From a virus (taxonomy: Duplodnaviria; Heunggongvirae; Uroviricota; Caudoviricetes): a stretch of 14,799 nucleotides of DNA. Positions 1,024 to 14,799 of the stretch are shown one piece after another. The notes below the pieces were generated by a model. The model was given only the letters and a program-made list of their open reading frames with translations, did no database searches and was not told the origin of the DNA. The stretch lies in the IMG/VR virus record IMGVR_UViG_2654587540_000008. One strand, 5' to 3'. Position numbers and translations under genes: made by a program. Positions within the stretch are counted from its first letter, which is position 1; each line of letters opens with the position of its first letter.

Positions 1024-1206
1024 GATAAATGAAGGGGGATCCGTGAGATAAATAACGAATTGGAGTGGGTTAACATGGGTTCTGGTGAACAGAACTGAAA
1101 TTCTTTTTCGCTATACGATAGATAAGTCGGACATTGAAATCATCCTTTCTGGCAACTTAGAATCGAGTTTGCTGAAACATGACCCGTAACAAAAAGGATG
1201 ATTCCA

Positions 1207-1368
1207 ATGACTACTCAAAACAATAAGCATGACAGCCTTGATTACTCAGAAAAGCCCAAAAGCAAGCACATCGTGACGTTCGAGCGCGATTCCGGTAGAA
1301 AAGGAGAATCGTCTTCCTCTGCCAATAAAAACACTATGCCGGCAGCTCCTGCTCCGGGGAAAAAATAA
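1207..1368 (+). CDS. Small hydrophilic ORF (53 aa), hypothetical
   Basis: ATG at 1207 preceded by AAGGA about 8 nt upstream; encodes MTTQNNKHDSLDYSEKPKSKHIVTFERDSGRKGESSSSANKNTMPAAPAPGKK, stop TAA at 1366-1368. Below the 60-aa cutoff of the ORF track. Converges on the minus-strand gene ending at 1372. No recognisable domain. Confidence 0.2.
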   Translation: MTTQNNKHDSLDYSEKPKSKHIVTFERDSGRKGESSSSANKNTMPAAPAPGKK

Positions 1369-1371
1369 ACA

Positions 1372-2004
1372 TCATTCATCGCTCGTTGCACGAACGCGCC
1401 TGATCTCCACTCTGGCAATCTGATCTGCTGGAATATAGGTTGCCAGAGCTCCCCAGTACTTATCAACCACGCCTTTATACTCTTCCCATTCGTTACTGCC
1501 TGAAGGGCTGCTGTGTGTGACGTAAAGAACCATATCGCCTTTATTCCCCAGGGTAAACGGACCGTTAGGCCACTCTTCAAAGTTCCCTGGCAGTCGTGAC
1601 ATCATACCGGAACCATCGCGAAGAATCACTCTGACCTCGGTGACGCTGAAGTCTGTTTGATCAAACATTGCCTGCCATGCTGAGCTGGTATCGTCAGACC
1701 ATGAAATATCATTATTCCACAGTAATCTGTACATCCATTTGCGACCGTACCTGCGCCACCACGCACCGCATGTAACAGCACACAGAAGTGCTGGTGGTGT
1801 TGCCAGCCAGGCATTCAGACCTGCCCACATAACAACCTGGTAAGCCATCATTGCTGTCAGGCCAAAAATTAGCGAAGAAAAAGTCACCTCAATGGGTTTG
1901 TGCTGATCCTTCAGCCCCACATTCGCAATAAAATACCCAATATAGCCACTGGTCAGAGTCACCAGTGTTGCCCATGGCAAATTTAACAACGAAACGTCAA
2001 ACAT
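1372..2004 (-). CDS. Membrane protein with N-terminal hydrophobic helices and a soluble C-terminal domain, hypothetical; possible prophage moron
   Basis: The ORF track gives 1372..2082, but its first ~25 codons overlap the terminator hairpin. The likely start is the ATG at 2004 (MFDVSLLNL...), preceded on the minus strand by AGGGAG. Three hydrophobic segments are followed by a ~110-aa hydrophilic domain. It sits in its own unit downstream of the mor terminator. Confidence 0.55.
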   Translation of the reverse strand: MFDVSLLNLPWATLVTLTSGYIGYFIANVGLKDQHKPIEVTFSSLIFGLTAMMAYQVVMWAGLNAWLATPPALLCAVTCGAWWRRYGRKWMYRLLWNNDISWSDDTSSAWQAMFDQTDFSVTEVRVILRDGSGMMSRLPGNFEEWPNGPFTLGNKGDMVLYVTHSSPSGSNEWEEYKGVVDKYWGALATYIPADQIARVEIRRVRATSDE

Positions 2005-2040
2005 ATTTTCTCCCTGCATCCTGAATACTACAGAGAGAGC

Positions 2041-2077
2041 ATAAAAAAAGCACGGTAAGGGGTCTACCGTGCTTTTA
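2041..2077 (-). terminator. Rho-independent terminator (bidirectional hairpin) ending the minus-strand mor operon
   Basis: Perfect 11-bp inverted repeat AAAGCACGGTA (2047-2057) / TACCGTGCTTT (2065-2075) with a 7-nt loop AGGGGTC. It is flanked by an A7 run at 2043-2049 (a U-run on the minus-strand transcript) and TTTT on the plus strand. Lies 40 bp downstream of the Mor-like stop. Confidence 0.7.
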
Positions 2078-2118
2078 TACAATAAGGAGATTTTTGAAAG
2101 GACTTTAACAAGCAGGAA

Positions 2119-2517
2119 TTATCTGGATTTGTTAACGTCTCTCGTCTCCTCTGGCAGATCTTCATCAAACAACCTGCCCTGCATCCGATCCAGTTCTTCT
2201 TTTCTTACCCGCTTAACCACGCTGTAGACCCACTGAAGCGAAACACCAAATTTGCGGGCCAGTTCGTGGTGGTTGCGTCCGTTAAACTCCCTGAAGATTT
2301 CCCGGTCGCGCTGACTGACCTTCCATACCATGCCCATCGGGAAATAAACGTTTTGCCCGCCCCAGACCTGCATCATTCGGTTCGCGACAGCCTGACCAAT
2401 CTGGTCGGCAATTGCGGGCTCAATATCAATAATCTCGCGAACGGTCTCAGAGGTATGCTGTGCCAGTTCCACCAGGAGTTCCGGCCCTTTACTTCGAAAC
2501 TGATTCAGGTCGCTCAT
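2119..2517 (-). CDS. mor: Mor/C-family transcriptional activator (Mu middle-operon regulator-like)
   Basis: 132-aa ORF. The C-terminal half WGGQNVYFPMG...REIFREFNGRNHHELARKFGVSLQWVYSVVKRVRK matches the Mor/C-family GGQ.VY.P...FNGRN..EL...YGV....VY..I.R.R pattern as I recall it for Mu Mor. AGGAG lies 6 nt upstream of the ATG at 2517. Confidence 0.8.
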   Translation of the reverse strand: MSDLNQFRSKGPELLVELAQHTSETVREIIDIEPAIADQIGQAVANRMMQVWGGQNVYFPMGMVWKVSQRDREIFREFNGRNHHELARKFGVSLQWVYSVVKRVRKEELDRMQGRLFDEDLPEETRDVNKSR

Positions 2518-2938
2518 GTTTTACTCCTGCAGCTCTGCGCTGCCACTTCTTCAGTTTCTCAATAACACTGCTTGCCTGTTCAGTACTGAGCCAGCGCAGA
2601 GCGCTGATGCCCGTTTCCCGCTTGATCCACCGCGCTAATGCATTTTCTGAACGGTCACGAACAATGCCGGCAGCAGCCATTTCAAGCCATAGTGCACGGA
2701 TTTTCCTGGACTGCGGATGGTTATCCAGCGGTAAACCGGAGCTGGCTTTTCCGGCAGGCTTAACGCGAAAGCCTTTCCTTTTCATGGACTCAAGCACGCA
2801 GTTTAGTTGTGTGATATCCATTACTTTGGTTGAGGCCTTACCAGTCAGCCCCTGTAACACCTGGCGGTAGGTGTCTTCATCTAGGCCCAGTTCATTACGG
2901 GCAATATGGATAAGCTGAATCAGTCGTTTTTTCTGCAT
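2489..2938 (-). CDS. GemA-like protein (Mu gp16 / DUF1018-like), immediately upstream of mor
   Basis: 149-aa ORF starting MQKKRLIQLIHIARNELGLDEDTYRQVLQGLTGKAS, resembling the N-terminal motif of Mu GemA-family proteins. Its position directly 5' of the Mor-like gene, with a 29-bp overlap, matches Mu gene order (gemA-mor). Confidence 0.5.
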   Translation of the reverse strand: MQKKRLIQLIHIARNELGLDEDTYRQVLQGLTGKASTKVMDITQLNCVLESMKRKGFRVKPAGKASSGLPLDNHPQSRKIRALWLEMAAAGIVRDRSENALARWIKRETGISALRWLSTEQASSVIEKLKKWQRRAAGVKHERPESVSK

Positions 2939-2939
2939 A

Positions 2940-3143
2940 TCAGCCCCGCTTTTTCAGTCTGCCAGCAGCAATGTCAGTTGCAGCCGGCAGGGTCACAGGC
3001 CAGAACAGTATGACAGCTGTCATATACAGGATGTAATACGCGGTGTCATAGTGGTTACCGAAGCCCAGTGCATAATGAAGCCGGGCACTGCATAATCCTG
3101 CATATGTGTACCAGAAAAGAAAACAGGCAATAGTTTCAGCCAT
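2940..3143 (-). CDS. Small hydrophobic protein, hypothetical
   Basis: The track ORF is 2940..3164; the ATG at 3143 (MAETIACFLFWYTYAG...) gives an 8-bp overlap with the upstream gene. Two hydrophobic segments. Tightly packed within the minus-strand operon. Confidence 0.35.
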   Translation of the reverse strand: MAETIACFLFWYTYAGLCSARLHYALGFGNHYDTAYYILYMTAVILFWPVTLPAATDIAAGRLKKRG

Positions 3144-3543
3144 TATATTTTTTCTCCAGTTCAATATTTTTCAGGTCATTTTCCGCAAACAGGATTGCTG
3201 TTCTGGCACTCCGCAATCGTGCTTTCGCATTTTTTTCTTCACGTTCAAGGCCAGCGACAGATTCACGAAGAGCTTCTCGCTTTTTATGAAGACGATTAAT
3301 TTCATGCACGATATTTTCAGCATTACGGGCACGGTCAAGGATAAATTCAAATGGATCCAGTACAGCCCCACACAGTGAACAGGTCAGCGTCCGGTTGATT
3401 TCAGAGACTGTTGTCCGGGCATGCCGGCACAGGTTTTGTTCGTTATTCTTTCGTTCAGAAATAACCACGTTCAGCAGTTTTTTGGCTTCTGCATCAGGAG
3501 CTGGCTGAAGCAAATGAATAATGTTATCGCTGTCGTTATCCAT
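3136..3543 (-). CDS. Hypothetical protein with a Cys-containing segment and a coiled-coil-like C-terminus
   Basis: The track ORF is 3136..3642; the likely start is the ATG at 3543 (MDNDSDNIIHLL...), with GGAGG 6 nt upstream and an 8-bp overlap with the end of the upstream gene. Contains C..H....C.LCG spacing and a K/E/R-rich C-terminal helix. Confidence 0.5.
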   Translation of the reverse strand: MDNDSDNIIHLLQPAPDAEAKKLLNVVISERKNNEQNLCRHARTTVSEINRTLTCSLCGAVLDPFEFILDRARNAENIVHEINRLHKKREALRESVAGLEREEKNAKARLRSARTAILFAENDLKNIELEKKYNG

Positions 3544-4225
3544 TATATGCCTCCAGTTTCTGTTGTTCCTGCCCACTGACCGGTCGGTGCAGTCTGACGT
3601 TCTGCCCTTCTCGAAACCCCGCATAGCGCGAGGCGTCGCCATTGCGGCTTCTTCCCGGTTTACGCGCTCTGGTGGTTTGCGTTTGCGGGTATTTATGTTC
3701 CAGCCACTGCTGCATCAGTTCACGTTCGTCATCGGTCAGGGCGAAGGACTGTATTTCACTGATAACGGCCAGCACCCAGCCTTCAGCAAACTGGTCACCA
3801 CGGCTGGTACGGGTGGCAGTTTTTATTCTTTTGTTCTGTGTGCTGATATACTGCTGACGCGCCTTTTTCAGCTGGCGGGCCAGCACTTCCCAGGTGTATG
3901 CAGCCAGTGCAGCCCGTTCCCGGTTGCCGTAGAACCCCACACCCGGATATGTGCCGGGGTGAATGATGGAGTTAACACCAAATGCCTCGCGGATGATGTT
4001 CATCAGGCCCAGCATGTAGCGCGGTGGACGGAGACTGCCTGTCGGCCAGTAATGACTGATGGTTTCATCAATATCACTCATGGCAATGTCGGAATGTGTG
4101 ATGCCGTGAACATCCATCAGTTTACGGGCACGGCGCAGTGCCAGAGCGGCTTCGTGTGGGTTGCCGGATGCGGCCAGCGCCAGCAACTTTTTCAGTTTCT
4201 CAATGTGTTTATTCTGGTCTGTCAT
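3536..4225 (-). CDS. DUF2786-like protein (N-terminal KLKKLLALAASGNPHEAALALRRARKLM motif)
   Basis: 229-aa ORF. The N-terminal motif matches the DUF2786 family signature as I recall it. GGAG lies 8 nt upstream of the ATG at 4225, and the start overlaps the upstream stop in an ATGA arrangement. Confidence 0.6.
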   Translation of the reverse strand: MTDQNKHIEKLKKLLALAASGNPHEAALALRRARKLMDVHGITHSDIAMSDIDETISHYWPTGSLRPPRYMLGLMNIIREAFGVNSIIHPGTYPGVGFYGNRERAALAAYTWEVLARQLKKARQQYISTQNKRIKTATRTSRGDQFAEGWVLAVISEIQSFALTDDERELMQQWLEHKYPQTQTTRARKPGRSRNGDASRYAGFREGQNVRLHRPVSGQEQQKLEAYNG

Positions 4226-4437
4226 TGTTCAGTATCTCCGGTATTTTTCTGCCGTTTCCATGCCCGGACAGCGTCGGACAGCTCTTTCAGGCTGTATGCT
4301 GCTTTAAGCTTTTCCCATAACCACTGTGTTGTTATGTGCATCAGCAGGGCAGCCAGGGCTGCCCCCGCACTGAGGCATGTCGCCAGGCCAGTAAGAATCA
4401 GTGTCCATGCGGTGATTTCCCTGAGTATGTCAGCCAT
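4222..4437 (-). CDS. Small membrane protein, hypothetical
   Basis: 71 aa with one strongly hydrophobic segment (WTLILTGLATCLSAGAALAALLM). GGGAGG lies 6 nt upstream of the ATG at 4437. The stop overlaps the downstream start (ATGA), suggesting translational coupling. Confidence 0.5.
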   Translation of the reverse strand: MADILREITAWTLILTGLATCLSAGAALAALLMHITTQWLWEKLKAAYSLKELSDAVRAWKRQKNTGDTEQ

Positions 4438-4451
4438 TGAATGCCTCCCGG

Positions 4452-4748
4452 TTACTCGTTCGTGTAAATCACGCCCAGTCGTGCAGCCAGACGTTCCAGT
4501 TTTTTCTGTTTGTGGAAGTCAATCAGCCGGTCCATCCCCTGAAGGCGCAGCTGCTCTGTCATGATTTCCACGTCTGCCAGCTCTGCCGCGAGGTCACTTT
4601 CGCTGCCCTGTCCGTTCAGGTTGCGGGCGGCACTGGCCGCCAGTTCGGCGGCCTCTTCTGTCAGTTTCAGGGCCTGTGCATCCGGCCCGAAACGCTGCAG
4701 AGCCAGACGATAGAGGGCAGTGCGTGTGAGTATGGTGTTCCGTGTCAT
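4452..4748 (-). CDS. MazG-like nucleotide pyrophosphohydrolase domain protein (phage-type, ~100 aa)
   Basis: 98 aa. Pattern FGP...EEAAEL....ELADVEIM..QL...G.D.....K.KK..R resembles small phage MazG-like proteins. GAGGG lies 5 nt upstream of the ATG at 4748. First gene of the minus-strand operon. Confidence 0.5.
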   Translation of the reverse strand: MTRNTILTRTALYRLALQRFGPDAQALKLTEEAAELAASAARNLNGQGSESDLAAELADVEIMTEQLRLQGMDRLIDFHKQKKLERLAARLGVIYTNE

Positions 4749-4845
4749 GCCGCGCCCTCAGTGCTTCCGGTCGACGGTGATGTGCAGGCCGCCTTCTGCA
4801 GTGGTTTCCATCCGGTATCTGGCCAACATCTTCCGCGTCGGTGGC

Positions 4846-4910
4846 GTTGATCAACTGACTGACTATCGGATCAATATCGGGGGCTGACGGTGAGTGTTGA
4901 ACTGACTGAC
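4846..4910. promoter_or_regulatory. Direct repeats in the divergent intergenic region; candidate operator/promoter elements
   Basis: GTTGATCAACTGACTGAC (4846-4863) and GTTGAACTGACTGAC (4896-4910) share GTTGA..AACTGACTGAC. The first contains the 10-bp palindrome GTTGATCAAC. They lie between the start of the minus-strand operon (4748) and the plus-strand genes. Confidence 0.25.
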
Positions 4911-5171
4911 AAAGGAGGGCGATGTGCGTCACTGGGCATGTCAAATGGTACGTGGTTTACCCTCCTTGATATTCCGGGGGTGGAAACCCTTTTTAATACC
5001 CGTAAAACCAATGACCCGATTGACTGCACACGTTCAAAGGCCCGCAAACTGGCCGATTTGATTGAAGCATGGGAGCCGCCCGACCACTGGTTCTCCGGCA
5101 CCGGCAAATCTGAGGGAAAGGCGCTTCTCATCGCTTTCCTGCGTAACTGCAAGGGTTTTCGCACTTGCTGA
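4890..5171 (+). CDS. Hypothetical small protein; start uncertain (GTG at 4890 or ATG at 4938)
   Basis: Open frame ending TGA at 5169-5171, followed by a GC hairpin (5179-5192) and a T-rich tract. AAGGAGGG at 4912-4919 is poorly spaced for either start. No recognisable domain. Confidence 0.3.
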   Translation: MSVELTDKGGRCASLGMSNGTWFTLLDIPGVETLFNTRKTNDPIDCTRSKARKLADLIEAWEPPDHWFSGTGKSEGKALLIAFLRNCKGFRTC

Positions 5172-5177
5172 CATCAC

Positions 5178-5200
5178 AGGGGCTCCGGCCCCTTCTTCTT
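5178..5200 (+). terminator. Possible weak rho-independent terminator
   Basis: GGGGC (5179-5183), loop TCCG, GCCCC (5188-5192), followed by TTCTTCTT. The stem is short and the U-run is interrupted. Confidence 0.3.
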
Positions 5201-5268
5201 AATCCCCTTTAATATCCGTCACGTCCACTGCCAGACATACTGCTCTGAATTTACAAAGGAGTATGATC

Positions 5269-5604
5269 ATGTCACAGACCCAGTCCGATACTTTTACGCT
5301 GTCTTATCCTTTCACCACTGCTGCAGGTACCAGAATTGAACAGATTGAACTGAAACGCCTGACAGTAAAAGACCTGAAGCAGGTGCGCAAAATCAACAAA
5401 GACCCGGCAGACTGGGACGAACCACTGATTGCCCGTAGCACCGGTATCCTCCCGGAAGACCTCGATAACATGGATCTTGCCGACTATATGGAGCTGCAGA
5501 AACGATTTCAGAAAATCACTGGGCTGGGCAAGAGCGACAAAAACACTGATGCAGGCGCAGGGGCTGCTGGCGAGATGGTTCAGGTTTCAGCCGGGGGAGA
5601 TTGA
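5269..5604 (+). CDS. Tail assembly chaperone (P2 gpE / lambda gpG-like), upstream ORF of a frameshift pair
   Basis: The track ORF starts at 5263; the ATG at 5269 has AAGGAG 7 nt upstream. The protein (..RIEQIELKRLTVKDLKQV...DLADYMELQKRFQKITG..) resembles the gpE family of tail chaperones. It lies immediately upstream of the tape measure gene, as is conserved in long-tailed phages. Confidence 0.75.
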   Translation: MSQTQSDTFTLSYPFTTAAGTRIEQIELKRLTVKDLKQVRKINKDPADWDEPLIARSTGILPEDLDNMDLADYMELQKRFQKITGLGKSDKNTDAGAGAAGEMVQVSAGGD

Positions 5605-5686
5605 TGCCCTCGATACTGACGATCTGGAGATGTGGCTGGAGCAGGCTGAAGAGCAAATCAAAAGCGAGTTCGGCGACAATCAGTAA
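5429..5686 (+). CDS. Overlapping ORF in the +1 frame; putative frameshift extension of the tail chaperone (E'/GT-like)
   Basis: Open in the frame one nucleotide forward of the chaperone frame, overlapping its 3' end and extending 82 nt past its stop to TAA at 5684-5686. A G5 run (5593-5597) lies 5 nt before the chaperone stop. The geometry implies a +1 or -2 shift rather than the canonical -1. Confidence 0.5.
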   Translation: MPVAPVSSRKTSITWILPTIWSCRNDFRKSLGWARATKTLMQAQGLLARWFRFQPGEIDALDTDDLEMWLEQAEEQIKSEFGDNQ

Positions 5687-5778
5687 CAACGTATCACTTA
5701 ACAGCCGCCAGTCGCGGCTGTTCTGCATGGGGTTCAGACACTTCCCTTCCGTTTTTTTGCTTTCAGAGGATAGCCACC

Positions 5779-8244
5779 GTGGCCAGTGAATTTTCAGTCG
5801 GCGTCATTATTGGCGGCATTGTCGGGAGCAGCTTCCGCTCAGCCGTCAGTGGCACCCGACGCGCCCTTGATTCCCTTGGTGATACCTCCCGCCGTCTGCA
5901 GGAACGCCAGAATGCCTTAACCCGGGCAACAGAACGTTATGGTCAGTTGGGTTCTTCCCGGATGCAGCATCTCAACAGCGAGTTGCTGCGGGTAAGCCGC
6001 ACCATGGAGCAAATTGAACGTCAGCAGCGCCGTCTGTCAGCAGTATCAGCCATCGGTGATGCGTTGAAGGCTAACCGCCTGGCGCTCTATGGTCAGGGTG
6101 CAGAAACCTATGCTATTGGCAGAACGCTGGGCGCACCGGTCATGGCCTCGGTTAAACAATATGCCTCGTTTGAATCACAGTTACGGGATATCAGTGTCAC
6201 AGGAGACCTGGATGCAAAACAGGAACGTGCAATTGGCCTGGCTATCAGACAGGCCTCGCTGAAGGTTAACCAACTGCAGGAGTCTCTGTTAGGGGGAGTC
6301 GGACAATTAGTCGCTGATGGTATGGCCCCCGAACGGGCAGCAACGTTTGCAGAGATGCTTGGAAAGACCGCTACAGCAACCAAAGCCGATATGACCGACC
6401 TTGCCAAAATGACTTATGCCTTCAGCGATGCACTCAGAATCACTGATGCGAAAGAACTTGAACAGGCATTTGGTATTGCGGCAACAGGAGCCAAACTTGG
6501 GTCATTTGAGCTGAAGGATATGGCAAAAGCATTACCCGGTATGGCTAAAGCCTTCGCTGCTCGTGGTATTTATGGAAAAGATGCGATTACCCAGATTGTT
6601 GCCAGTCTGGAGGTCGGTAAAGGTAGTGGCTCTGCAGAGGAAGCGGTCACCAATATGTCCAACTGGCTGGCAGCAATGGGCCGCGGAGATACCATCCAGA
6701 AATATGCTAAAGCCGGGGTGGATTACCAGGGGTCAATGCAGAATTACGTCGCTCAGGGTTTTTCGCAGTACGAAGCTTCACTGATGATTGCCAACCGTTT
6801 TATCGACAGTAAAGGCAAAGCGTTCTTGCAGCAATGGAAAGCTGCAGGAGCAAGAGGCGATCAGGAAGGTCAGCAGAAACTCATGGAGTCATTTGGTCTG
6901 GCTGAGGTCTTTACCGATATTCAGACTGTCAACCATTTACTGTCAATGCGACAGGGCTGGGATAAATACCTTTCCAGTAAGCAGGAAATGAATGCTCCGG
7001 CTGCAATGTCTACCCTGGATAAGGATGCTGCAAAGCAGAATGATACGCTTGAAGGTCGCTGGCGCAGAATGCAGATCGGCTTTAATGATTCTGCTATCAG
7101 CATCGGGCAATCCTTGCGTCCGGCTTTGCTCCAGTTGGGTGAAACATTTATTCCTTTAATGGACAGTGTTGGCAAATGGATAGCGGCAAATCCGCAGCTC
7201 GTCAGCAGCACCATAAAGGTTGTGGGCGCATTACTCGCTTTCAGGATGGCCACTATCGGTCTCAAGCTTGGGCTGAACCTCCTTCTTTCCCCCTTTGTAA
7301 GCGTCTGGAAAAATGCTGTTTTACTTCGGGCCAACTGGCTTCGTCTGACGCTCGCACTGGGGGAAGGCGGTAAACTCCGCTGGCTGGTGACAGGCTTTGG
7401 TGCTGTCGCCAGAGGAGCCAGAACACTGGGTGGTGTGCTCTCAGGGGGGCTGGTTCGCGGAATTATGAGCGCCGGGCGTGCCGTTCTCTGGCTTGGCCGG
7501 GCGCTGATGATGAATCCCATCGGTCTCGCTATCACCGCCGTCGCGGCAGCAGCTTACCTTATCTACCGCAACTGGGGCGCGGTCAGTAGCTGGTTTAAAC
7601 AGCGCTGGGCTGACATTCAGGAAGCCTTTAACGGCGGCATCGCGGGAATTGGTAAACTGCTGGTTAACTGGTCTCCGGCAGGTCTGCTTTATAAAGCCTT
7701 TGCGGCTGCGCTGAAATATCTCGGCGTTGATTTGCCGGCGAAATTCACCGACTTCGGTGGTCATCTTATTGACGGGCTGATAAATGGCATCAGAAACAAA
7801 TGGGAGTCACTGAAAACCAGCATAACCGGAATGGGTGACAGCATCAGTGACTGGTTCAGCGAAAAGCTGGGCATCCATTCACCGAGTCGCGTGTTTATAG
7901 GCTTTGGTGACAATATCGCGCAGGGTGCCGCCATTGGCCTGCAACGGACCACTCCGCTTGCTGCACTGGCCGGGCAGCGTCTGGCCGCTGAAATGACACC
8001 GGATGTTCCCCGTATCCCGTCGCCGGAAATCATGGCTGCCGGATATTCAGGCCGTGGCGCAACTGCAACCGGCGGTGGAGCGTCTGGCGGTATCCAGGTC
8101 AGCTTTAATCCTCAGTTTTTCCTCAATGGTAAGGAAACCGCAGCGCCTGCCGGGCTGGCTGGTGCCCTGAATATGAGCCTGCATGAGCTGGAAAAAATGC
8201 TGGAGCGTCTGCTGGCTCAGAAACAACGTAAGGAGTACAGCTGA
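5779..8244 (+). CDS. Tail tape measure protein
   Basis: 821-aa ORF from a GTG start at 5779 (GAGGA 9 nt upstream). N-terminal helical, Q/R/E-rich region, a central glycine-rich hydrophobic stretch (...GFGAVARGARTLGGVLSGGLVRGIMSAG...) and position directly after the chaperone pair are typical of tape measure proteins. Confidence 0.85.
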   Translation: MASEFSVGVIIGGIVGSSFRSAVSGTRRALDSLGDTSRRLQERQNALTRATERYGQLGSSRMQHLNSELLRVSRTMEQIERQQRRLSAVSAIGDALKANRLALYGQGAETYAIGRTLGAPVMASVKQYASFESQLRDISVTGDLDAKQERAIGLAIRQASLKVNQLQESLLGGVGQLVADGMAPERAATFAEMLGKTATATKADMTDLAKMTYAFSDALRITDAKELEQAFGIAATGAKLGSFELKDMAKALPGMAKAFAARGIYGKDAITQIVASLEVGKGSGSAEEAVTNMSNWLAAMGRGDTIQKYAKAGVDYQGSMQNYVAQGFSQYEASLMIANRFIDSKGKAFLQQWKAAGARGDQEGQQKLMESFGLAEVFTDIQTVNHLLSMRQGWDKYLSSKQEMNAPAAMSTLDKDAAKQNDTLEGRWRRMQIGFNDSAISIGQSLRPALLQLGETFIPLMDSVGKWIAANPQLVSSTIKVVGALLAFRMATIGLKLGLNLLLSPFVSVWKNAVLLRANWLRLTLALGEGGKLRWLVTGFGAVARGARTLGGVLSGGLVRGIMSAGRAVLWLGRALMMNPIGLAITAVAAAAYLIYRNWGAVSSWFKQRWADIQEAFNGGIAGIGKLLVNWSPAGLLYKAFAAALKYLGVDLPAKFTDFGGHLIDGLINGIRNKWESLKTSITGMGDSISDWFSEKLGIHSPSRVFIGFGDNIAQGAAIGLQRTTPLAALAGQRLAAEMTPDVPRIPSPEIMAAGYSGRGATATGGGASGGIQVSFNPQFFLNGKETAAPAGLAGALNMSLHELEKMLERLLAQKQRKEYS

Positions 8245-9128: not shown

Positions 9129-9205
9129 TGTTTCTTGAACATATTACCCGTGACGGAGAGCGCTGGGATTCTCTGTGGATGAGGCACTGGCCATTGATGT
9201 GCTGA
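9128..9205 (+). pseudogene. Short out-of-frame leader ORF (MFLEHITRDGERWDSLWMRHWPLMC), possible remnant N-terminus of a deleted or frameshifted tail gene
   Basis: ATG at 9128, 25 codons, in a different frame from the J-like ORF that opens at 9175. The J-like protein lacks the N-terminal part expected for baseplate J proteins. The GDxWDSL motif is reminiscent of LysM-like tail protein X N-termini (weak). Confidence 0.3.
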
Positions 9206-9987
9206 TCCCGGCAGGCACCCGCGTCAGCGCTTCCGACAGTATTATTTTTGCCACCGATACAGATGTGGTGCTGAAGGCCGGATTGCTGCTGGTCAATGTC
9301 ACGTCCACCTGTACCGAGCCGGGTACCGCTGGCAACGGCTGGCAACCGGCGCAGGTCAGTCAGTTACTCGATGAGATTGATAACATTGACCTGCTGGTGA
9401 CCAATCTGACGGCCAGCTCTGGCGGTTCAGAGCAGGAAGACGATGACCGGCTCCGGGAGCGTATCAGGCTGGCCCCGGAGTCATTCACCAATGCCGGAAG
9501 CCGTGGTGCATACCGTTTTCATGCTATGGGGGCGCATCCCGGCATTGTCGACGTTGCTGTTCTTTCTCCCGCTCCCGGCACTGTCGAGCTGTATCCGCTG
9601 CTCAGCACTGGTCTGCCGGACAGCAGTATCCTCACTCTGGTAGAGAGTTTCTGTTCTGACGAAAAAGTCAGACCACTCACTGATACCGTGCGGGCTAAAA
9701 CACCTGTTCAGGTGGATTACACCATTGAAGCCAGGATTACGATCTATCGTGATCAGGATGCAAGGTTGGTAAAGGACAACGCTAACAGCGCCATACAGAA
9801 CTGGGTGGCATCCCGTACCGCCACGCTGGGGCGCGATATTGTTCCCAGCCAGATTATCAGCGTGTTGTCCGTTTCCGGGGTGTACCAGGTCGAACTGGTG
9901 ACACCGGCACTGAGGGTGGTGGCAGAAAACGAATGGGCAAACTGTACGGCGATCACTCTTAACATGACCGGGGTGTCCGATGGCTGA
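9175..9987 (+). CDS. Baseplate assembly protein J-like (P2 gpJ / Mu gp47 family), apparently N-terminally truncated
   Basis: 270 aa from the first in-frame start (GTG at 9175). The C-terminal two thirds (..GSRGAYRFHAMGAHPGIVDVAVLSPAPGTVELY...TLGRDIVPSQIISVLSVSGVYQVELVTP...) match the gpJ family as I recall it. An 8-bp overlap (ATGGCTGA) with the I-like gene is typical of J-I pairs. Confidence 0.7.
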   Translation: MDEALAIDVLIPAGTRVSASDSIIFATDTDVVLKAGLLLVNVTSTCTEPGTAGNGWQPAQVSQLLDEIDNIDLLVTNLTASSGGSEQEDDDRLRERIRLAPESFTNAGSRGAYRFHAMGAHPGIVDVAVLSPAPGTVELYPLLSTGLPDSSILTLVESFCSDEKVRPLTDTVRAKTPVQVDYTIEARITIYRDQDARLVKDNANSAIQNWVASRTATLGRDIVPSQIISVLSVSGVYQVELVTPALRVVAENEWANCTAITLNMTGVSDG

Positions 9988-10558
9988 GGTGCTACAACTC
10001 CCGCCACCGCTTGAGGGTGATATCAGTCTCAGAACGCTGGGAAGACTGGCCGGACGGCTGGATAACATCGACCTGAGCGTACTGATGGTCGGTCTCGTCG
10101 ATATTGTCGACAGTTCCGCGCTGCCATGGCTTGGCGAGCAGTTCTCGCTGTTCGGCGATGGCTGGGAACTGGCGGAATCGGACGATGTACGCCGCATGCT
10201 TATCAAATCCGCTATCGAGCTACACCGCTATAAAGGAACACCGTGGTCAATCCGGGAAATTATCCGCCGTTTTGGCTTCGGCGAAGTGGATCTGATTGAA
10301 GGTACGGGGCAGATTGGCTATGACGGCAGACACACGTACAACGGGCTTTTCGTCCATGGCGATGCACAAGCCTGGGCAGTCTATCGGGTCATCCTTCAAC
10401 AGCCCATCACTAATGATCAGGCAGCGCTGTTACGTCAGACGCTTGCTGCCTTTGCTCCGGCTCGCTGTCATCTGGCAAGTCTGGAATATCAGTCTGTCGC
10501 CATTCGATACAACAGTACTACCCGTTATGACGGTAGTTACAACCACGGGAGCAGTTAA
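9980..10558 (+). CDS. Tail protein I-like (P2 gpI / Mu gp48 family)
   Basis: 192 aa containing IELHRYKGTPWSIREIIRRFGFGEVDLIEG, a hallmark-like motif of the gpI family. Positioned between the J-like gene and the tail fibre gene. Confidence 0.75.
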   Translation: MAEVLQLPPPLEGDISLRTLGRLAGRLDNIDLSVLMVGLVDIVDSSALPWLGEQFSLFGDGWELAESDDVRRMLIKSAIELHRYKGTPWSIREIIRRFGFGEVDLIEGTGQIGYDGRHTYNGLFVHGDAQAWAVYRVILQQPITNDQAALLRQTLAAFAPARCHLASLEYQSVAIRYNSTTRYDGSYNHGSS

Positions 10559-10560
10559 TT

Positions 10561-11643
10561 ATGGCAAATCTACCCGAAACCCCGCAGTGGGAAAGCGGCA
10601 TCTACCAGATTGAGGTCTCTGACCCCGTTCTGGGCGGACCTGACGGAATTTCTAACCGCCAGGCTAAACAACTGGCCAGCCGAACGTCATACCTCAAACA
10701 GAAGGTCGAAAAAAGCGAAACAGACCTGGCTGCACATATCGCGGCAGTTGACCCGCATACCCAGTACGCGACGAAAGCCAGTCCGACATTCACCGGCACA
10801 CCAACAGCACCTACACCTGCAAATGGTGATAACAGCAAAAAGCTGGCGACGACGGAGTTTGTGGCCAAAGCACTTGCGGCACTTGCAGGCAGCGCCCCTG
10901 AGACACTGGATACGCTTAAAGAGCTGGCTGACGCTCTCGGTAATGATCCAAACTTTGCGACTACGGTACTGAACAAGCTGGCGGAAAAGCTGGCTAAAGA
11001 CCAGAACGGCGCAGATATTCCTGAGCCTGCGCTGTTTGTCAAAAACCTTGGTTTGGGGGAAGGCTCTGCACTGCCCGTTGGTGTGCCTGTTCCGTGGCCA
11101 TCAGCAACACCGCCAGAGGGATGGCTGAAATGTAACGGCGCAGCATTTTCTTCTGAAATGTACCCCAAACTGGCAAAGGCTTATCCCACGAATAAATTAC
11201 CGGATTTACGGGGTGAATTTATCCGTGGCTGGGATGACGGACGTGGCGTGGATGCGGGGCGAACATTACTGGGTGCTCAGGATTTTGCGTTTGAAGATCA
11301 TGCTCTGGGGCTACCTACCAATCAGGGATATGCAGGTATTGAGAAAGGTAGCACTGAAAATGATATTTATGCCGCTTTCTCTGATGGCATGCACTATACA
11401 GGGAATGCAACCAGTAGCGGTCAATGGGATGATTATTCTCAGTCAAAAATCTATATCCGTAGTGATGGTAAACCTGTCGGAAATAACATTGAGTTAGCTA
11501 ATTCAAATGAGGCCTTGCGTTCTTCTTTACGTACTTATAGAGCCAGTACAGGATGGTATAACCCAGGATTAAACAAACCTAAAACAGCTACAGAAACACG
11601 TCCACGCAACGTTGCTTTTAATTACATCGTAAGAGCCGCATGA
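10561..11643 (+). CDS. Tail fibre protein: constant N-terminal part (10561 to about 11047) fused to currently expressed variable C-terminal cassette A
   Basis: 360 aa. The N-terminus has phage tail-fibre repeat-like sequence (VDPHTQYATKASPTFTGTPTAPTPANGDNSKKLATTEFV). The C-terminal part begins with a tail-collar-like module (WLKCNGAAFSSEMYPKLAKAYPTNKLPDLRGEFIRGWDDGRG) and ends ETRPRNVAFNYIVRAA. The crossover site lies inside the gene at 11036-11061. Confidence 0.85.
   Translation: MANLPETPQWESGIYQIEVSDPVLGGPDGISNRQAKQLASRTSYLKQKVEKSETDLAAHIAAVDPHTQYATKASPTFTGTPTAPTPANGDNSKKLATTEFVAKALAALAGSAPETLDTLKELADALGNDPNFATTVLNKLAEKLAKDQNGADIPEPALFVKNLGLGEGSALPVGVPVPWPSATPPEGWLKCNGAAFSSEMYPKLAKAYPTNKLPDLRGEFIRGWDDGRGVDAGRTLLGAQDFAFEDHALGLPTNQGYAGIEKGSTENDIYAAFSDGMHYTGNATSSGQWDDYSQSKIYIRSDGKPVGNNIELANSNEALRSSLRTYRASTGWYNPGLNKPKTATETRPRNVAFNYIVRAA
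11036..11061 (+). other. Serine-invertase crossover site (hix/gix/cix-like), expression-site copy
   Basis: TTGTCAAAAACC-TT-GGTTTGGGGGAA has the 12-2-12 architecture and AAACC nn GGTTT core of hixL (TTCTTGAAAACC AA GGTTTTTGATAA) and gix sites, as recalled. It sits exactly at the constant/variable junction of the tail fibre gene. Confidence 0.7.
11048..11253 (+). repeat. Conserved 5' cassette module, copy A (tail-collar-like domain coding, ~200 bp)
   Basis: Encodes GLGEGSALPVGVPVPWPSATPPEGWLKCNGAAFSSEMYPKLAKAYPTNKLPDLRGEFIRGWDDGRG. Near-identical DNA recurs at 11649, 12193 and, inverted, at about 13990-14194, with a partial inverted copy at about 13592-13700. Confidence 0.85.
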
Positions 11644-11662
11644 AAACGTTGGTTTGGGGGAA
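11637..11662 (+). other. Crossover-site-like sequence at the cassette A/B junction, with a degenerate left half-site
   Basis: CGCATGAAAACG-TT-GGTTTGGGGGAA. The right half and centre are identical to the expression-site copy; the left half retains only the AAAAC core (5 of 12 matches). Confidence 0.4.
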
Positions 11663-11854
11663 GGCTCTGCACTGCCCGTTGGTGTGCCTGTTCCGTGGCC
11701 ATCAGCCACACCGCCAGAGGGCTGGCTGAAATGCAACGGCGCAGCATTTTCTTCTGAAATGTACCCCAAACTGGCAAAGGCTTACCCCACCAATAAATTA
11801 CCGGATTTACGCGGTGAGTTTATTCGTGGCTGGGATGACGGGCGCGGAGTAGAT
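11649..11854 (+). repeat. Conserved 5' cassette module, copy B
   Basis: Near-identical to 11048-11253 with scattered, mostly synonymous substitutions; the encoded peptide is identical through GWDDGRG. Confidence 0.85.
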
Positions 11855-12187
11855 ACAGGACGTGTTTTATTAAGTAATCAAACAGATGCTTTTCAAACAC
11901 ACAGACATAAGACCTATTTTTATGCAGGTATCAACCGTAATGAAATGCCTTTAAAAAATTTACCTGAATCAGAAGAAATGCTGACATTAAGCTCTACAGT
12001 TAATGCCTTGTCTCCAGCCGATATTGATGCCACAAATTCATTAATTGGGAATGACGATTACAACTGTGTTATTGAAGGCAATAAAAACAGTAAACGTACA
12101 GCGACAGAGTTGAATACCAGCTCTACAGGCACAACAGAAACCCGCCCCCGCAATATTGCTTTTAACTTCATTGTAAGAGCAGCATAG
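11651..12187 (+). CDS. Silent alternative tail-fibre C-terminal cassette B (no independent start codon or RBS)
   Basis: Open frame beginning right after the stop of cassette A. It encodes the same 65-aa tail-collar module, then a divergent ~95-aa region, and ends with the conserved ETRPRNIAFNFIVRAA and TAG. The track start is an internal TTG with no Shine-Dalgarno sequence. Confidence 0.7.
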   Translation, partial: GLGEGSALPVGVPVPWPSATPPEGWLKCNGAAFSSEMYPKLAKAYPTNKLPDLRGEFIRGWDDGRGVDTGRVLLSNQTDAFQTHRHKTYFYAGINRNEMPLKNLPESEEMLTLSSTVNALSPADIDATNSLIGNDDYNCVIEGNKNSKRTATELNTSSTGTTETRPRNIAFNFIVRAA

Positions 12188-12206
12188 AAACGTTGGTTTG
12201 GGGGAA
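12181..12206 (+). other. Crossover-site-like sequence at the cassette B/C junction, with a degenerate left half-site
   Basis: AGCATAGAAACG-TT-GGTTTGGGGGAA; same right half and centre as the expression-site copy. Confidence 0.4.
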
Positions 12207-12398
12207 GGCTCGGCGCTGCCTGTTGGCGTGCCGGTTCCATGGCCGTCAGCCACACCGCCAGAGGGCTGGCTGAAATGTAACGGCGCAGCATTTTCTTCTG
12301 AAATGTACCCCAAACTGGCAAAGGCTTACCCCACCAATAAATTACCGGATTTACGGGGTGAGTTTATTCGTGGCTGGGATGACGGGCGCGGAATTGAC
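12193..12398 (+). repeat. Conserved 5' cassette module, copy C
   Basis: Near-identical to copies A and B; the encoded peptide is identical through GWDDGRG. Confidence 0.85.
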
Positions 12399-12665
12399 TC
12401 TGGTCGCAACCTGTTATCTGCACAGAATGATGCAATTCAGAATATTGTTGGTTCTTTTGGGCGTACCCAGCTTTTTAAAGACGTTCTTAGTTCAGGACCA
12501 TTTAGTAGAATTAATCAAGTTTTATCTATTGGTCTAAAGGAAACGGAATTTATTGAGGGTTATGGAGCTTATAACTGGACATTCGACGCTTCTCGAGCGG
12601 TTCGTACAGCATCTGAAACCCGCCCCCGAAATATTACATTTAACTATATCGTGAGGGCGGCTTAA
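12195..12665 (+). CDS. Silent alternative tail-fibre C-terminal cassette C
   Basis: Same conserved 5' module, a divergent middle (..NLLSAQNDAIQNIVGSFGRTQLFKDVLSSGPFSRINQVLSIGLKETEFIEGYGAYNWTFDASRAVRTAS..) and the conserved end ETRPRNITFNYIVRAA, stop TAA at 12663-12665. No start codon context. Confidence 0.7.
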   Translation, partial: GLGEGSALPVGVPVPWPSATPPEGWLKCNGAAFSSEMYPKLAKAYPTNKLPDLRGEFIRGWDDGRGIDSGRNLLSAQNDAIQNIVGSFGRTQLFKDVLSSGPFSRINQVLSIGLKETEFIEGYGAYNWTFDASRAVRTASETRPRNITFNYIVRAA

Positions 12666-12671
12666 TTATGA

Positions 12672-13289
12672 TCAACTGACAGTTGCCAGAGGCATTTCCG
12701 GCCAGTTGATATCCGGCGCAGTGCTGAGGTCAGTCGCATTAAGCGCATCTATAAAATCAAGCACGGCGTTCAGTTTTTCCGTCTCCTGTGGCGTCAACTG
12801 GCGTCCGGCTCGTAGTTTGAGATTTATAAGCTCAACGGATGCCATTGCCTGCTCCTCAAGTTGCTGACGATGCGCTCCGGCAGCTTCCAGTTCTGCAGTG
12901 TGCTGTCGTTCCGTATCTGTCACCCAGTTCTCACCATCCCAGATATCATAGATGGTAGCTGGCTGTTTTACCGTCGTATCAGAAGGGTAATCTCCCGGCT
13001 GTGTGATTTGCACAGCGTTACCATTCTCTGTGCTGTAAACCGTCTCGCCTCTGTGGTCTGGGACATATTTCCAGATGTTCTGGTCGGTATCACGACAGAC
13101 AGCGAAGCCAGGGCGCTCTTCCGGTGGCGCGTCAATGCATGAATGAGCCGGAATTCCAACACCATAAGCGAGATATTCAACAGTGGCAGAGAGATATTCA
13201 CGGTTTTCAGCATCGTAGTTATAAACTGTAATATCGCCTGCAGTTGTAGCGATACCATTCTGATCAAGTACTGCAACAGCGTTATTCAT
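12672..13289 (-). CDS. Tail fibre assembly protein (Tfa; Mu U / P2 gpG / lambda Tfa family)
   Basis: 205 aa. The C-terminus ..LNAVLDFIDALNATDLSTAPDINWPEMP has the typical Tfa ending. The start codon overlaps the stop of cassette D as TAATG (translational coupling). It converges on cassette C with 6 bp between stops. Confidence 0.8.
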   Translation of the reverse strand: MNNAVAVLDQNGIATTAGDITVYNYDAENREYLSATVEYLAYGVGIPAHSCIDAPPEERPGFAVCRDTDQNIWKYVPDHRGETVYSTENGNAVQITQPGDYPSDTTVKQPATIYDIWDGENWVTDTERQHTAELEAAGAHRQQLEEQAMASVELINLKLRAGRQLTPQETEKLNAVLDFIDALNATDLSTAPDINWPEMPLATVS

Positions 13290-13700
13290 TAAATAGCCCT
13301 TACAATATAGTTAAACGCAATATTACGGGGGCGGGTTTCTGTTCCTGTATTCCCTCCGTTGACACCTAACCTGTACACACCACGAGTGCCAATAGCACGT
13401 AGTGAAGATGGAACCTTTACGCCTGACTCATCTGTTTTAACTATCCCTCCATCCCCGTATGTAGCCAGTATACCAGGATTTGTACCTGCACGTGTGCTGT
13501 TTGCAGCAAGCCCTTCACCGGTCCATAACTCCATATAGTGAGTATGATCCATAACCGAATGTGGTTGTGCATTAAGCAAGAAACGCCCTGAATCAATTCC
13601 CCGTCCGTCATCCCAGCCACGAATAAACTCACCCCGTAAATCCGGTAATTTATTGGTGGGGTAAGCCTTTGCCAGTTTGGGGTACATTTCAGAAGAAAAT
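13289..13700 (-). CDS. Alternative tail-fibre C-terminal cassette D (inverted orientation, 5' end truncated by an N run), followed by tfa
   Basis: Minus-strand frame encoding ..SSEMYPKLAKAYPTNKLPDLRGEFIRGWDDGRGIDSGRFLLNAQPHSVMDHTHYMELWTGEGL...TGTETRPRNIAFNYIVRAI. The first ~100 bp of the conserved module are missing where the N run 13701-13710 sits. Confidence 0.7.
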
Positions 13701-13710
13701 NNNNNNNNNN
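13701..13710. other. Run of 10 N at the cassette E/D junction; assembly gap or masked sequence
   Basis: By comparison with the A/B and B/C junctions, about 97 bp of conserved sequence (crossover site plus start of the tail-collar module) is expected here, so the 10 N do not represent true length. Confidence 0.9.
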
Positions 13711-13715
13711 CGTTT

Positions 13716-14194
13716 CTATGCTGCTCTTACAATGAAGTTAAAAGCAATATTGCGTGGACGAGTTATATTAAAAAATGACCCACTTAAAGCAACTTTGGAA
13801 CGGCTATTGGCGTTACCCAGAGATGCGTACCATAAATAATCGCTCCGATAATCAGTTGAGAATGTTTTATCACCGCCATAATCAATGCTATTACCGTTAC
13901 TCATATATGAAATATCAACTGAAGCATCATTGTCATCTCTACCACCAACTAAAGTACCTTTCTGCCACCCAAGCAACTGGCGGCCAGGATCAATTCCCCG
14001 TCCATCATCCCAGCCACGAATAAACTCACCCCGTAAATCCGGTAATTTATTCGTGGGATAAGCCTTTGCCAGTTTGGGGTACATTTCAGAAGAAAATGCT
14101 GCGCCGTTACATTTCAGCCAGCCCGCTGGCGGTGTGGCTGACGGCCACGGAACAGGCACACCAACGGGCAGTGCAGAGCCTTCCCCCAAACCAA
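13716..14194 (-). CDS. Alternative tail-fibre C-terminal cassette E (inverted orientation)
   Basis: Minus-strand frame encoding the full conserved module (one substitution, PPAGW instead of PPEGW), a divergent middle (..QLLGWQKGTLVGGRDDNDASVDISYMSNGNSIDYGGDKTFSTDYRSDYLWYASLGNANSRSKVALSGSFFN) and ITRPRNIAFNFIVRAA. The track's upstream extension to 14228 runs through the N run and is not trusted. Confidence 0.7.
13990..14194 (-). repeat. Conserved 5' cassette module, copy E (inverted)
   Basis: Reverse complement is near-identical to 11048-11253. Confidence 0.85.
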
Positions 14195-14204
14195 NNNNNN
14201 NNNN
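14195..14204. other. Run of 10 N exactly where the crossover half-site of cassette E is expected
   Basis: On the minus strand the sequence reads ...CTTTGTTTTG-N10-TTGGTTTGGGGGAA. The N run replaces the left half-site and lies 22 bp upstream of the invertase start. Confidence 0.9.
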
Positions 14205-14226
14205 CAAAACAAAGAGGATATTTTTC

Positions 14227-14799
14227 ATGCAAATTGGCTACATTCGTGTGTCAACAAATGACCAGAATACAGATTTACAACGAAACGCACTGAACTGCGC
14301 AGGATGTGAACTGATTTTTGAAGATAAAATCAGCGGAACAAAGTCAGCCAGACCAGGATTGAAAAAGCTACTCAGAACTTTATCAGAAGGAGATACGCTC
14401 GTTGTCTGGAAGCTGGACAGGCTGGGCAGAAGCATGAAGCACCTTATCACTCTTATTGAGGAACTGCGGGGAAAAGGGGTTAACTTCCGTAGCCTTACAG
14501 ACAGCATTGATACGTCAACACCCATGGGACGTTTCTTTTTTCACATCATGGGGGCTTTGGCGGAAATGGAGCGTGAATTAATAGTTGAACGAACACTGGC
14601 CGGACTTGAAGCAGCACGTGCACAGGGGCGTATTGGCGGACGCCGTCCGAAACTGACAAAAGAGCAACATGAACAAATAGCAAGGCTGATCAAAAATGGC
14701 TATAGCAGGAAACAACTGGCAATTATTTACGATATCGGCATATCGACGATTTATCGTTATCACCCGGTAGAAAAGCTACAAACTCAAACTGAGTTGTAA
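14227..14799 (+). CDS. Gin/Pin/Cin/Hin-family serine DNA invertase
   Basis: 190 aa. MQIGYIRVSTNDQNTDLQRNAL...DTLVVWKLDRLGRSMKHL...FRSLTDSIDTSTPMGRFFFHIMGALAEMERELIVERT...GRIGGRRPKL is near-identical in motif content to Gin/Pin/Hin as recalled. The catalytic Ser is at position 9 and there is a C-terminal helix-turn-helix. The track ORF from 14074 is an upstream artefact; stop TAA at 14797-14799. Confidence 0.92.
   Translation: MQIGYIRVSTNDQNTDLQRNALNCAGCELIFEDKISGTKSARPGLKKLLRTLSEGDTLVVWKLDRLGRSMKHLITLIEELRGKGVNFRSLTDSIDTSTPMGRFFFHIMGALAEMERELIVERTLAGLEAARAQGRIGGRRPKLTKEQHEQIARLIKNGYSRKQLAIIYDIGISTIYRYHPVEKLQTQTEL

Follow-up and report, generated by a model that had tools for sequence, protein, structure and literature searches.

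The stretch of DNA analysed here (the window) comprises 14,799 nucleotides of the IMG/VR virus record IMGVR_UViG_2654587540_000008. It begins with the 5' part of the Escherichia coli fimbrial gene ybgO, which is interrupted by the remnant of a BcepMu-like prophage, and ends with a tail-fibre switch: a fibre gene, a row of silent cassettes for its 3' part, and a serine DNA invertase. An original prediction, made from the letters of the window, had read the locus as a mosaic, defective prophage whose variation system is retained by selection, either on the fibre and invertase module itself or on the invertase acting in trans. We compared the window with other loci retrieved for this purpose and numbered L003, L010, L032 etc. 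Two of these are intact reference prophages, L003 in E. coli strain STIN_95 (inside gcl) and L032 in E. coli strain 2014C-3075 (36,254 bp, between asc and hyc); three are clone-mates with the same ybgO insertion, L010, L022 (GCA_017046735.1) and L026 (GCA_000488035.1). The comparison leads us to a different reading, in which the prophage was gutted very recently and its switch, probably spared by chance, is still flipping.

The switch consists of the following features:

10561-11643, plus strand: tail fibre gene in the expressed position, 360 aa, with the constant part (to ~11048) followed by cassette A; Collar domain PF07484
11036-11061, plus strand: crossover site s1, TTGTCAAAAACC TT GGTTTGGGGGAA, inside the fibre open reading frame (ORF) at codon ~160
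11637-11662, plus strand: crossover site s2, CGCATGAAAACG TT GGTTTGGGGGAA, its left half being the 3' end of cassette A
11654-12187, plus strand: silent cassette B, 177 aa, with Collar domain; in L015 it follows the constant part, giving a 341-aa fibre
12181-12206, plus strand: crossover site s3, AGCATAGAAACG TT GGTTTGGGGGAA, breakpoint of the inversion between the window and L010
12198-12665, plus strand: silent cassette C, 155 aa, Collar domain; fused (319-aa fibre) in L012 and L025
12672-13289, minus strand: tail fibre assembly protein (Tfa), 205 aa, serving cassette D (PF02413, PF28596)
13289-13700, minus strand: silent cassette D, 167 aa when complete, its first ~97 nt lying in the gap; fused (331-aa fibre, then Tfa) in L011 and L023
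13701-13710: assembly gap of 10 N standing for 97 nt, including site s4 (in L022, AGCATAGAAACG TT GGTTTGGGGGAA)
13716-14194, minus strand: silent cassette E, 157 aa, Collar domain; 100% identical to L010 9009-9492
14195-14204: assembly gap of 10 N standing for ~39 nt, including the head of cassette E and the invertase-proximal half of site s5 (in L022, AAGACGAAAACG TT …)
14227-14799, plus strand: serine DNA invertase of the Gin/Hin family, 190 aa; 69% identity to Mu Gin, 84% to the invertase of EC958 Phi2

The five crossover sites are 26-bp imperfect dyads of the form …AAAC(C/G) TT GGTTTGGGGGAA, three on the plus and two on the minus strand of the window. With TT at the core, they resemble the gix site of phage Mu, which we read from NC_000929 as TTATCCAAAACC TC GGTTTACAGGAA. 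Each cassette opens with a repeat of ~214 nt, at least 93% alike between copies, which is headed by the 26-bp site, and the preceding cassette furnishes the left half-site with its 3' end. The Collar domain (PF07484) is present in every cassette. Their arrangement is of two kinds: A, B and E are single cassettes with a site at the head, while C, the Tfa gene and D form a tail-to-tail unit that always moves together, much like a G segment. D is the only one of the five cassettes accompanied by a Tfa gene (window 12198-13700).

The invertase has a Resolvase and an HTH_7 domain, and its residues 1-185 align to the Mu Gin structures 4M6F and 3UJ3 (E 4e-90). In NCBIfam, the invertase had sub-threshold matches only, while neither the fibre nor Tfa had a match. 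The original prediction was right about the state of these genes: the invertase is full-length, with its helix-turn-helix and its catalytic Ser9 (a residue that is Ala in one Gin crystal construct), and the fibre, B and C are open throughout, as are D and E in a 100%-identical clone-mate. Nucleotides 24-125 of the invertase gene are highly conserved with gin and share a weak, degenerate Fis-like motif at nucleotides 71-85, in a region where coding constraint confounds conservation. With five cassettes and five crossover sites, it is not a simple two-state switch. On its sequence, the switch is a multiple-inversion system of the Gin/Min type, that is, a fibre switch driven by a serine invertase of the Din family.

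In such a system, the 190-aa invertase would recombine inverted pairs of the gix-like sites with core TT, one of which stands at the junction of constant and variable parts in the fibre gene and one at the head of each promoterless cassette. Each inversion would reshuffle the order and orientation of the cassettes and may set a new Collar-domain C-terminus in frame behind the constant N-terminus. The reaction may depend on Fis and an enhancer, the invertase is presumably expressed, and the fibre would have no present function.

The clone-mate L010 provides the most direct view of the switch at work. It carries the same insertion and both of the deletions described below, and it has zero mismatches to window 3185-12211. 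Window 12188-14204, in contrast, is exactly inverted in L010 at 100% identity, with the first differences 18 nt past the s3 core, and the difference between the two amounts to one exact, conservative s3 x s5 inversion. Since L010 carries both deletions and yet has the segment inverted, the flip postdates the deletions. Among prophages whose cassettes are 100% identical, we found at least six cassette orders, with fused fibres of 360 aa (A), 341 aa (B), 331 aa (D, then Tfa) and 319 aa (C). These comparisons indicate that the switch of this dead prophage still flips.

In at least 20 draft assemblies of the clone, contigs end within the s1 repeat; in GCA_000488035.1 the entire switch falls in an N gap of 5.6 kb. 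The practical side of the switch is that its crossover sites break short-read assemblies; mixed orientations in the cultures are possibly a cause. This raises the question whether an intact prophage could merely look deleted and inverted through misassembly across repeats, as might be suggested by the window's two N gaps, which fall on repeats, and by the many draft contigs terminating in the s1 repeat. The inversion junctions, however, are gap-free, both from B to C in the window and from B to E in L010, and the first cassette-specific bases stand 18 nt beyond the core, within one short read. The deletion junctions also speak against it. The sequence around them is unique, and the same junctions are seen in independently made NCBI and Logan assemblies, a 3.2-Mb scaffold among them, all with the same gene layout. 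Two markers were counted, the truncated YbgO specific to the insertion and the truncated gpJ specific to the second deletion, and each occurs on at least 24 contigs. We therefore consider an assembly artefact highly improbable.

Three-way comparison with the intact references placed the two deletion junctions to the base:

4758-4817, minus strand: cut early ORF, the 3' 60 nt of a 273-nt ORF that is intact at L003 23748-24020
4816-4817: junction of deletion 1 (Del1), with a 2-bp TA microhomology; L032 5848 is joined to 27616, 21,768 bp missing
4818-4887, plus strand: last ~70 nt of the tail tube gene (window 4816 = L032 27615; the tube coding sequence ends at L032 27686)
9169-9175: junction of deletion 2 (Del2), with a TTC microhomology; L032 31975 is joined to 34492, 2,517 bp missing

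Window 1011-4817 is colinear with L003 20001-23807, window 4816-9175 with L032 27615-31975, and window 9169-11257 with L032 34486-36574. Del1 took gam, the B and A transposase genes, the repressor region, dam, the lysis, terminase, portal, head and sheath genes, and tube codons 1 to ~151. Del2, which is absent from the original prediction, took gpX after codon ~16, gpD, gpV, gpW and gpJ codons 1-97. What remains, ~14.0 kb, is roughly 37% of a ~38-kb ancestor, with ~24 kb gone. The decay is thus a matter of two deletion events and not of gradual erosion, and the apparent divergence of regulators and tail genes near 4.8 kb marks the scar of a deletion and no regulatory region.

At Del2 (9125-9987), the ~16 initial codons of gpX run into gpJ at codon 98 in a different reading frame. 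What is left of J, 270 aa, can be read only from an internal GTG at 9175; gene callers still annotate it as a protein in many assemblies.

That transposase, lysis, head and sheath genes are missing from the window had been predicted correctly; of the tube gene, also listed as missing, the last ~70 nt remain. The further possibility that an intact prophage continues just past the window was checked in L010/L022 and L026, where the phage right end follows the invertase and host genes come next (the remainder of ybgO, abrB, nei, pxpABC). The missing phage genes are therefore not just outside the window, and the prophage is defective, as had been proposed. Judged by its gene content, the remnant is incapable of transposing, lysing, packaging or building a head, sheath, tube, baseplate or tailocin.

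The intact tape measure, gpU, gpI and fibre genes might nevertheless recall a tailocin or another contractile injection system, domesticated by the host and equipped with a variable fibre. The set of genes expected of a functional prophage or tailocin (sheath, complete tube, baseplate hub, spike, lysis) is deleted: sheath, nearly all of the tube, gpX, gpD, the spike gpV, gpW and the N-terminus of gpJ are gone and the element is without lysis genes, which leaves this explanation with next to no probability.

A third deletion is seen in the L020 sub-lineage, present in at least eight samples. Rightward from 4816, L020 is 100% identical to the window and has Del2. To the left of 4816 it runs into the usher gene ybgQ, which is joined to the 3' tip of the tube gene (…CTCGAC TA TCTGGCC, vs …CATCCGG TA TCTGGCC in the window; L020 5582-5682, also L004 8843). 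It lacks ybgP and ybgO' along with the phage left end and every early gene, Mor and GemA included. On the right, the breakpoints of Del1 and the L020 deletion agree to within a few bases. In 7/8 positions the ybgQ side and the intact tube sequence are alike (CTCGACTA vs CTGGACTA), which suggests that the L020 deletion arose independently, in an ancestor whose tube gene was still whole; such an ancestor was not found.

We looked for an IS element (insertion sequence), a hairpin or a recombination site that could explain the shared breakpoint and found none. No IS element lies at the junctions in the window or the clone-mates. A hairpin or palindrome hotspot was rejected, as there is no significant inverted repeat and the DNA folds no better than shuffled sequence (z = +1.1). 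The Del1 and L020 junctions both have a 2-bp overlap, as in the core of a serine-recombinase site; the invertase as the maker of Del1 via a quasi-site was rejected, as the flanks are unlike those of the 26-bp site and TA stands in place of the core TT.

From these observations we propose that a BcepMu-like phage of ~38 kb transposed once into ybgO and very recently lost ~24 kb through two illegitimate (microhomology) internal deletions. The switch at the right end would have survived since it was simply not hit, and it would need nothing from the remaining phage. On the sequence evidence, the remnant appears extremely young, with an age of days to decades. Its tail block (4816-9175) has a single nucleotide difference in 4,360 nt from the intact prophages L011, L013 and L015 at three other chromosomal sites, and its invertase DNA and most of its cassette DNA are 100% identical to theirs. 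Two further loci, L018 and L019, have 100% identity to the window across about 11.1 kb. With near-zero divergence from live phages, intact genes are to be expected without selection.

The original prediction had taken the retention of the switch amid decaying virion genes as a sign of selection. The data can be explained without it. Besides the near absence of divergence, the other survivors are equally well preserved: all uncut genes are as long as in intact relatives (eight early genes, the tape measure, gpU and gpI), including the 2.4-kb tape-measure ORF, which is useless without a tube. In a simple simulation, two random internal deletions of these sizes missed the 4.4-kb terminal switch with P ~0.50.

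Selection could still act on the host to keep the fibre/invertase module, for example as a phase-variable protein that blocks phage adsorption or is of use to the cell in another way, like the PinQ-flipped StfE2 of the e14 prophage. There is precedent in this invertase-made fibre chimera of a cryptic prophage, which blocks T2 adsorption (PMC12529663); further, the switch here is intact and active, and the three separate deletions (Del1, Del2, L020) all left the tail/fibre side in place, as far as visible. Yet the remnant is essentially undiverged from live phages, its other surviving genes are just as intact, chance would spare the switch about every second time, and the native late-promoter region is deleted with no replacement plus-strand promoter at the scar. 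We regard selection of this kind as unlikely. Ongoing domestication of the block in a wider sense seems to us very improbable; a fortuitous or read-through promoter would then express a five-state phase-variable Collar protein that sits on surface receptors and excludes phages, a PinQ/StfE2 defence with more states, or else the invertase would drive other loci.

Alternatively, the invertase may have been retained for its action in trans on other invertible segments of the same genome. By analogy, such action is biologically plausible, as cross-action of Din-family invertases is documented (PMC4134206) and PinQ, PinR and PinE all flip the P segment of e14 (PMC12529663). The youth of the remnant, however, leaves the retention of the invertase without need of explanation, and we consider this alternative very unlikely.

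The best overall explanation therefore is a freshly gutted prophage in which the switch was spared by chance and is still flipping, to which we assign a probability of roughly 0.78. Several points weigh against it. The null model of the simulation is crude, assuming uniform placement of deletions. The third deletion, that of L020, again spares the tail/fibre side as far as the contigs reach, which points weakly towards selection. Activity is deduced from two assemblies one inversion apart, and the window is gapped at s4 and s5. Simple scans found no promoter for the invertase or the fibre: at the deletion scar the plus strand showed no sigma-70-like site, the DNA upstream of the invertase gave no match, and the minus strand had two weak matches (5511-5483 and 5275-5248). 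More generally, the locus calls for caution: before an intact module in a decayed prophage can count as evidence of selection, one has to check how old the remnant is and how well its other genes have survived.

The ends of the element and its host site are as follows:

1-1010, plus strand: codons 1-337 of the host fimbrial gene ybgO; positions 1-1013 match the ybgO gene of E. coli ECOR29 at 100% identity
1005-1010: left target-site duplication CCCCAT, 6 bp; found again just after the right end of the phage in L022 and L026
1011-1371: prophage left end, TGATCAGACATGAG…; identity to the intact L003 and L032 starts here, and the host DNA to the left differs
1207-1368, plus strand: conserved small ORF, 53 aa, within the left-end segment

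Identity with the intact prophages sets in at window 1011 (TGATCAGACATG…), and the right end, …GCGCATCA, lies outside the window, 78 nt past the invertase stop, where we read it in L022 and L026. The element had been taken to start at 1372; it runs from 1011 to 78 nt beyond 14799. Its termini are of the Mu type, TG…CA (TGATCAG… left, …GCGCATCA right). In L022 and L026 the right end is followed by CCCCAT, the last 16 ybgO codons, abrB, nei and pxpABC; the left flank in the clone-mates holds ybgP, ybgQ, ybgD and gltA. Since CCCCAT stands on both flanks, as ATTCCT does in the intact prophage L032, the insertion was a single, ordinary transposition. In other genomes, the identical right end is joined to at least eight different host sequences, which is typical behaviour of a transposable phage.

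The interrupted ybgO ORF stops at 1023, within phage DNA. The gene is broken at codon 337/353, its last 16 residues (EAGPFDTVVLFKINYN) being swapped for DQT. Because the fold of a chaperone-usher subunit needs its C-terminal strand, the ybgDQPO fimbria is probably affected in the clone. The clone is known solely from draft and scaffold assemblies, and no complete E. coli genome in the searched collection had the remnant (no place covering at least 80% of the query).

The early region of the remnant comprises the following genes, the last five of which were identified with Pfam and PHROG:

1372-2004, minus strand: conserved protein, 210 aa, encoded at the end of the leftward early operon; full-length match to phrog_12870 (E 3e-131), gene also in L003 and L032
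2119-2517, minus strand: Mor-family transcription activator (PF08765, E 1e-43)
2489-2938, minus strand: GemA / gp16 family protein (PF06252, E 8e-40)
2940-3146, minus strand: early gene, 68 aa, full length as in L003
3136-3543, minus strand: early gene, 135 aa, full length as in L003
3536-4225, minus strand: DUF2786/DUF7168 protein, 229 aa, full length as in L003
4222-4437, minus strand: early gene, 71 aa, full length as in L003
4452-4748, minus strand: NTP-pyrophosphohydrolase-like protein, 98 aa, full length as in L003

The 210-aa protein (1372-2004) has predicted hydrophobic segments and no Pfam match, and in all family members it occupies a moron-like position beside the left end.

The closest classified relative is Escherichia phage PhiKM of the genus Bcepmuvirus (91% nucleotide identity over 2159-12269), and apart from the deletions the window is colinear with the intact L003 and L032. 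Gene content and order identify the element as a BcepMu-like, that is, Mu-type transposable prophage. In the relatives, the early strand reads, from the left end, 210-aa protein, Mor, GemA, small ORFs, Gam, B-like ATPase, DDE transposase and repressor region. The Mor-like and GemA-like regulators do sit on the minus strand opposite plus-strand tail genes, as the Pfam matches confirm; the description as a mosaic, which had been built on this divergence, does not hold. In L003, L032 and PhiKM alike, one strand carries Mor, GemA and the transposase genes and the other strand the genes for lysis, head and tail, and in intact relatives the fibre and invertase genes share the lysis/head/tail strand. 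Minus-strand Mor and GemA are thus the normal layout of the BcepMu-like family, and the element is not mosaic. The DDE transposase A and the ATPase B, which are present in the intact relatives and fall inside the 21.8-kb deletion, were not found in the window; the element is therefore a remnant of a Bcepmuvirus member and not a functional member.

Between the deletion scar and the fibre gene lie the surviving tail genes, the first three assigned from Pfam, PHROG and gene tables:

4890-5171, plus strand: DUF7739 protein
5269-5604, plus strand: tail assembly chaperone
5549-5686, plus strand: frameshift-type extension ORF, 45 aa, overlapping the chaperone and downstream of it
5779-8244, plus strand: tape measure, 821 aa, intact (PF10145)
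8244-9128, plus strand: gpU-like tail protein, 294 aa, intact (PF06995; phrog_788, E 7e-133)
9175-9987, plus strand: baseplate protein J, C-terminal 270 codons (truncated; intact J has 367 aa), Baseplate_J domains
9980-10558, plus strand: gpI-like baseplate protein, 192 aa (PF09684)

The chaperone and the 45-aa ORF have the arrangement typical of a programmed -1 frameshift pair (gpE/E+E'), which is intact in the remnant.

Many chromosomal sites (L011, L013, L015, L023-L031) hold prophages whose 190-aa invertase is the same and whose tail and cassette DNA is 99.98-100% identical; they lie near ymgF, ymjE, hya, gst/dacC, chaC, aroA-type genes and elsewhere. These prophages suggest that a near-identical BcepMu-like phage, with a host-range shuffler of five to six cassettes, is at present actively transposing through E. 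coli.

Among known systems, the G segment of Mu with its invertase Gin is an obvious counterpart, along with Cin of P1 and Hin of Salmonella. Common to them are a small serine invertase (69% identity to Gin) with Ser9 and a C-terminal helix-turn-helix, and 26-bp sites of the gix type. As in Mu, the fibre ORF contains a site where its constant part meets the variable one, the invertase gene stands just outside the invertible DNA at the phage right end, and the block of C, Tfa and D resembles the tail-to-tail unit of the G segment. The differences are five sites and cassettes as against two, a core of TT as against TC, Collar-domain C-termini with only one of five cassettes having its own assembly chaperone, and a host phage of the BcepMu type, whose early region is inverted relative to Mu.

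The shufflon of R64 is built on the tyrosine recombinase Rci and 19-bp sfx sites. It is similar in that multiple inversions reshuffle the C-terminal cassettes of an adhesin. The recombinase here is a serine invertase, however, and the switch is therefore shufflon-like in its working but not a member of the R64-type family.

In the Min system of plasmid p15B, studied by Sandmeier and colleagues, a Din-family invertase reportedly acts on more than two crossover sites and shuffles several fibre 3' cassettes into many isomers. The present switch appears functionally like it in having more than two sites, several cassettes and at least six orders among its relatives. It differs in residing in a transposable prophage, as against a P1-like plasmid, and in its cassette sequences. 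Min of p15B has been cited as a source for the crossover consensus (PMC4134206).

In the ST131 strain EC958, long reads caught three prophage fibre segments flipping in culture (PMC4134206). One of these prophages, Phi4, inverts despite a truncated invertase (PMC4134206) and must therefore be served in trans. EC958 was not among the matches in a search with the gpI/fibre segment, and we compared its Phi2 prophage by coordinates. Phi2 has the same right-end layout of gpJ, gpI, fibre, Tfa, cassettes and invertase, an invertase 84% identical to ours and the site GAGAGATAAACG TT GGTTTGGGGGAA with a ~200-bp repeat, and its inversion was directly seen in PacBio reads. Its nucleotide identity to the window is only 70-87%, it has fewer cassettes, and it is not reported to be deleted. 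Systematic surveys of programmed inversions find tail-fibre genes among the enriched families (PMC9881135).

In its overall situation, the locus resembles e14, a cryptic prophage of E. coli K-12 with an active Din-family invertase, Pin, and an invertible fibre P segment, in which PinQ-driven inversion makes the T2-blocking StfE2 (PMC12529663). Both are virion-incompetent prophages that still have an active invertase and invertible fibre cassettes. They differ in that e14 is lambdoid and old, switches between two states and has been reported to give its host a phenotype, whereas the present remnant is young, of the BcepMu type, with five cassettes and no known phenotype. The locus indicates that a Gin/Min-type switch is fully autonomous and goes on flipping after the death of its phage. 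Should expression of the fibre be shown in the clone, it would offer a natural starting point for understanding how defence modules such as PinQ/StfE2 arise. As a cryptic prophage with an autonomous multiple-inversion fibre switch of the Din family, it is a new example of a kind of situation that is already known.

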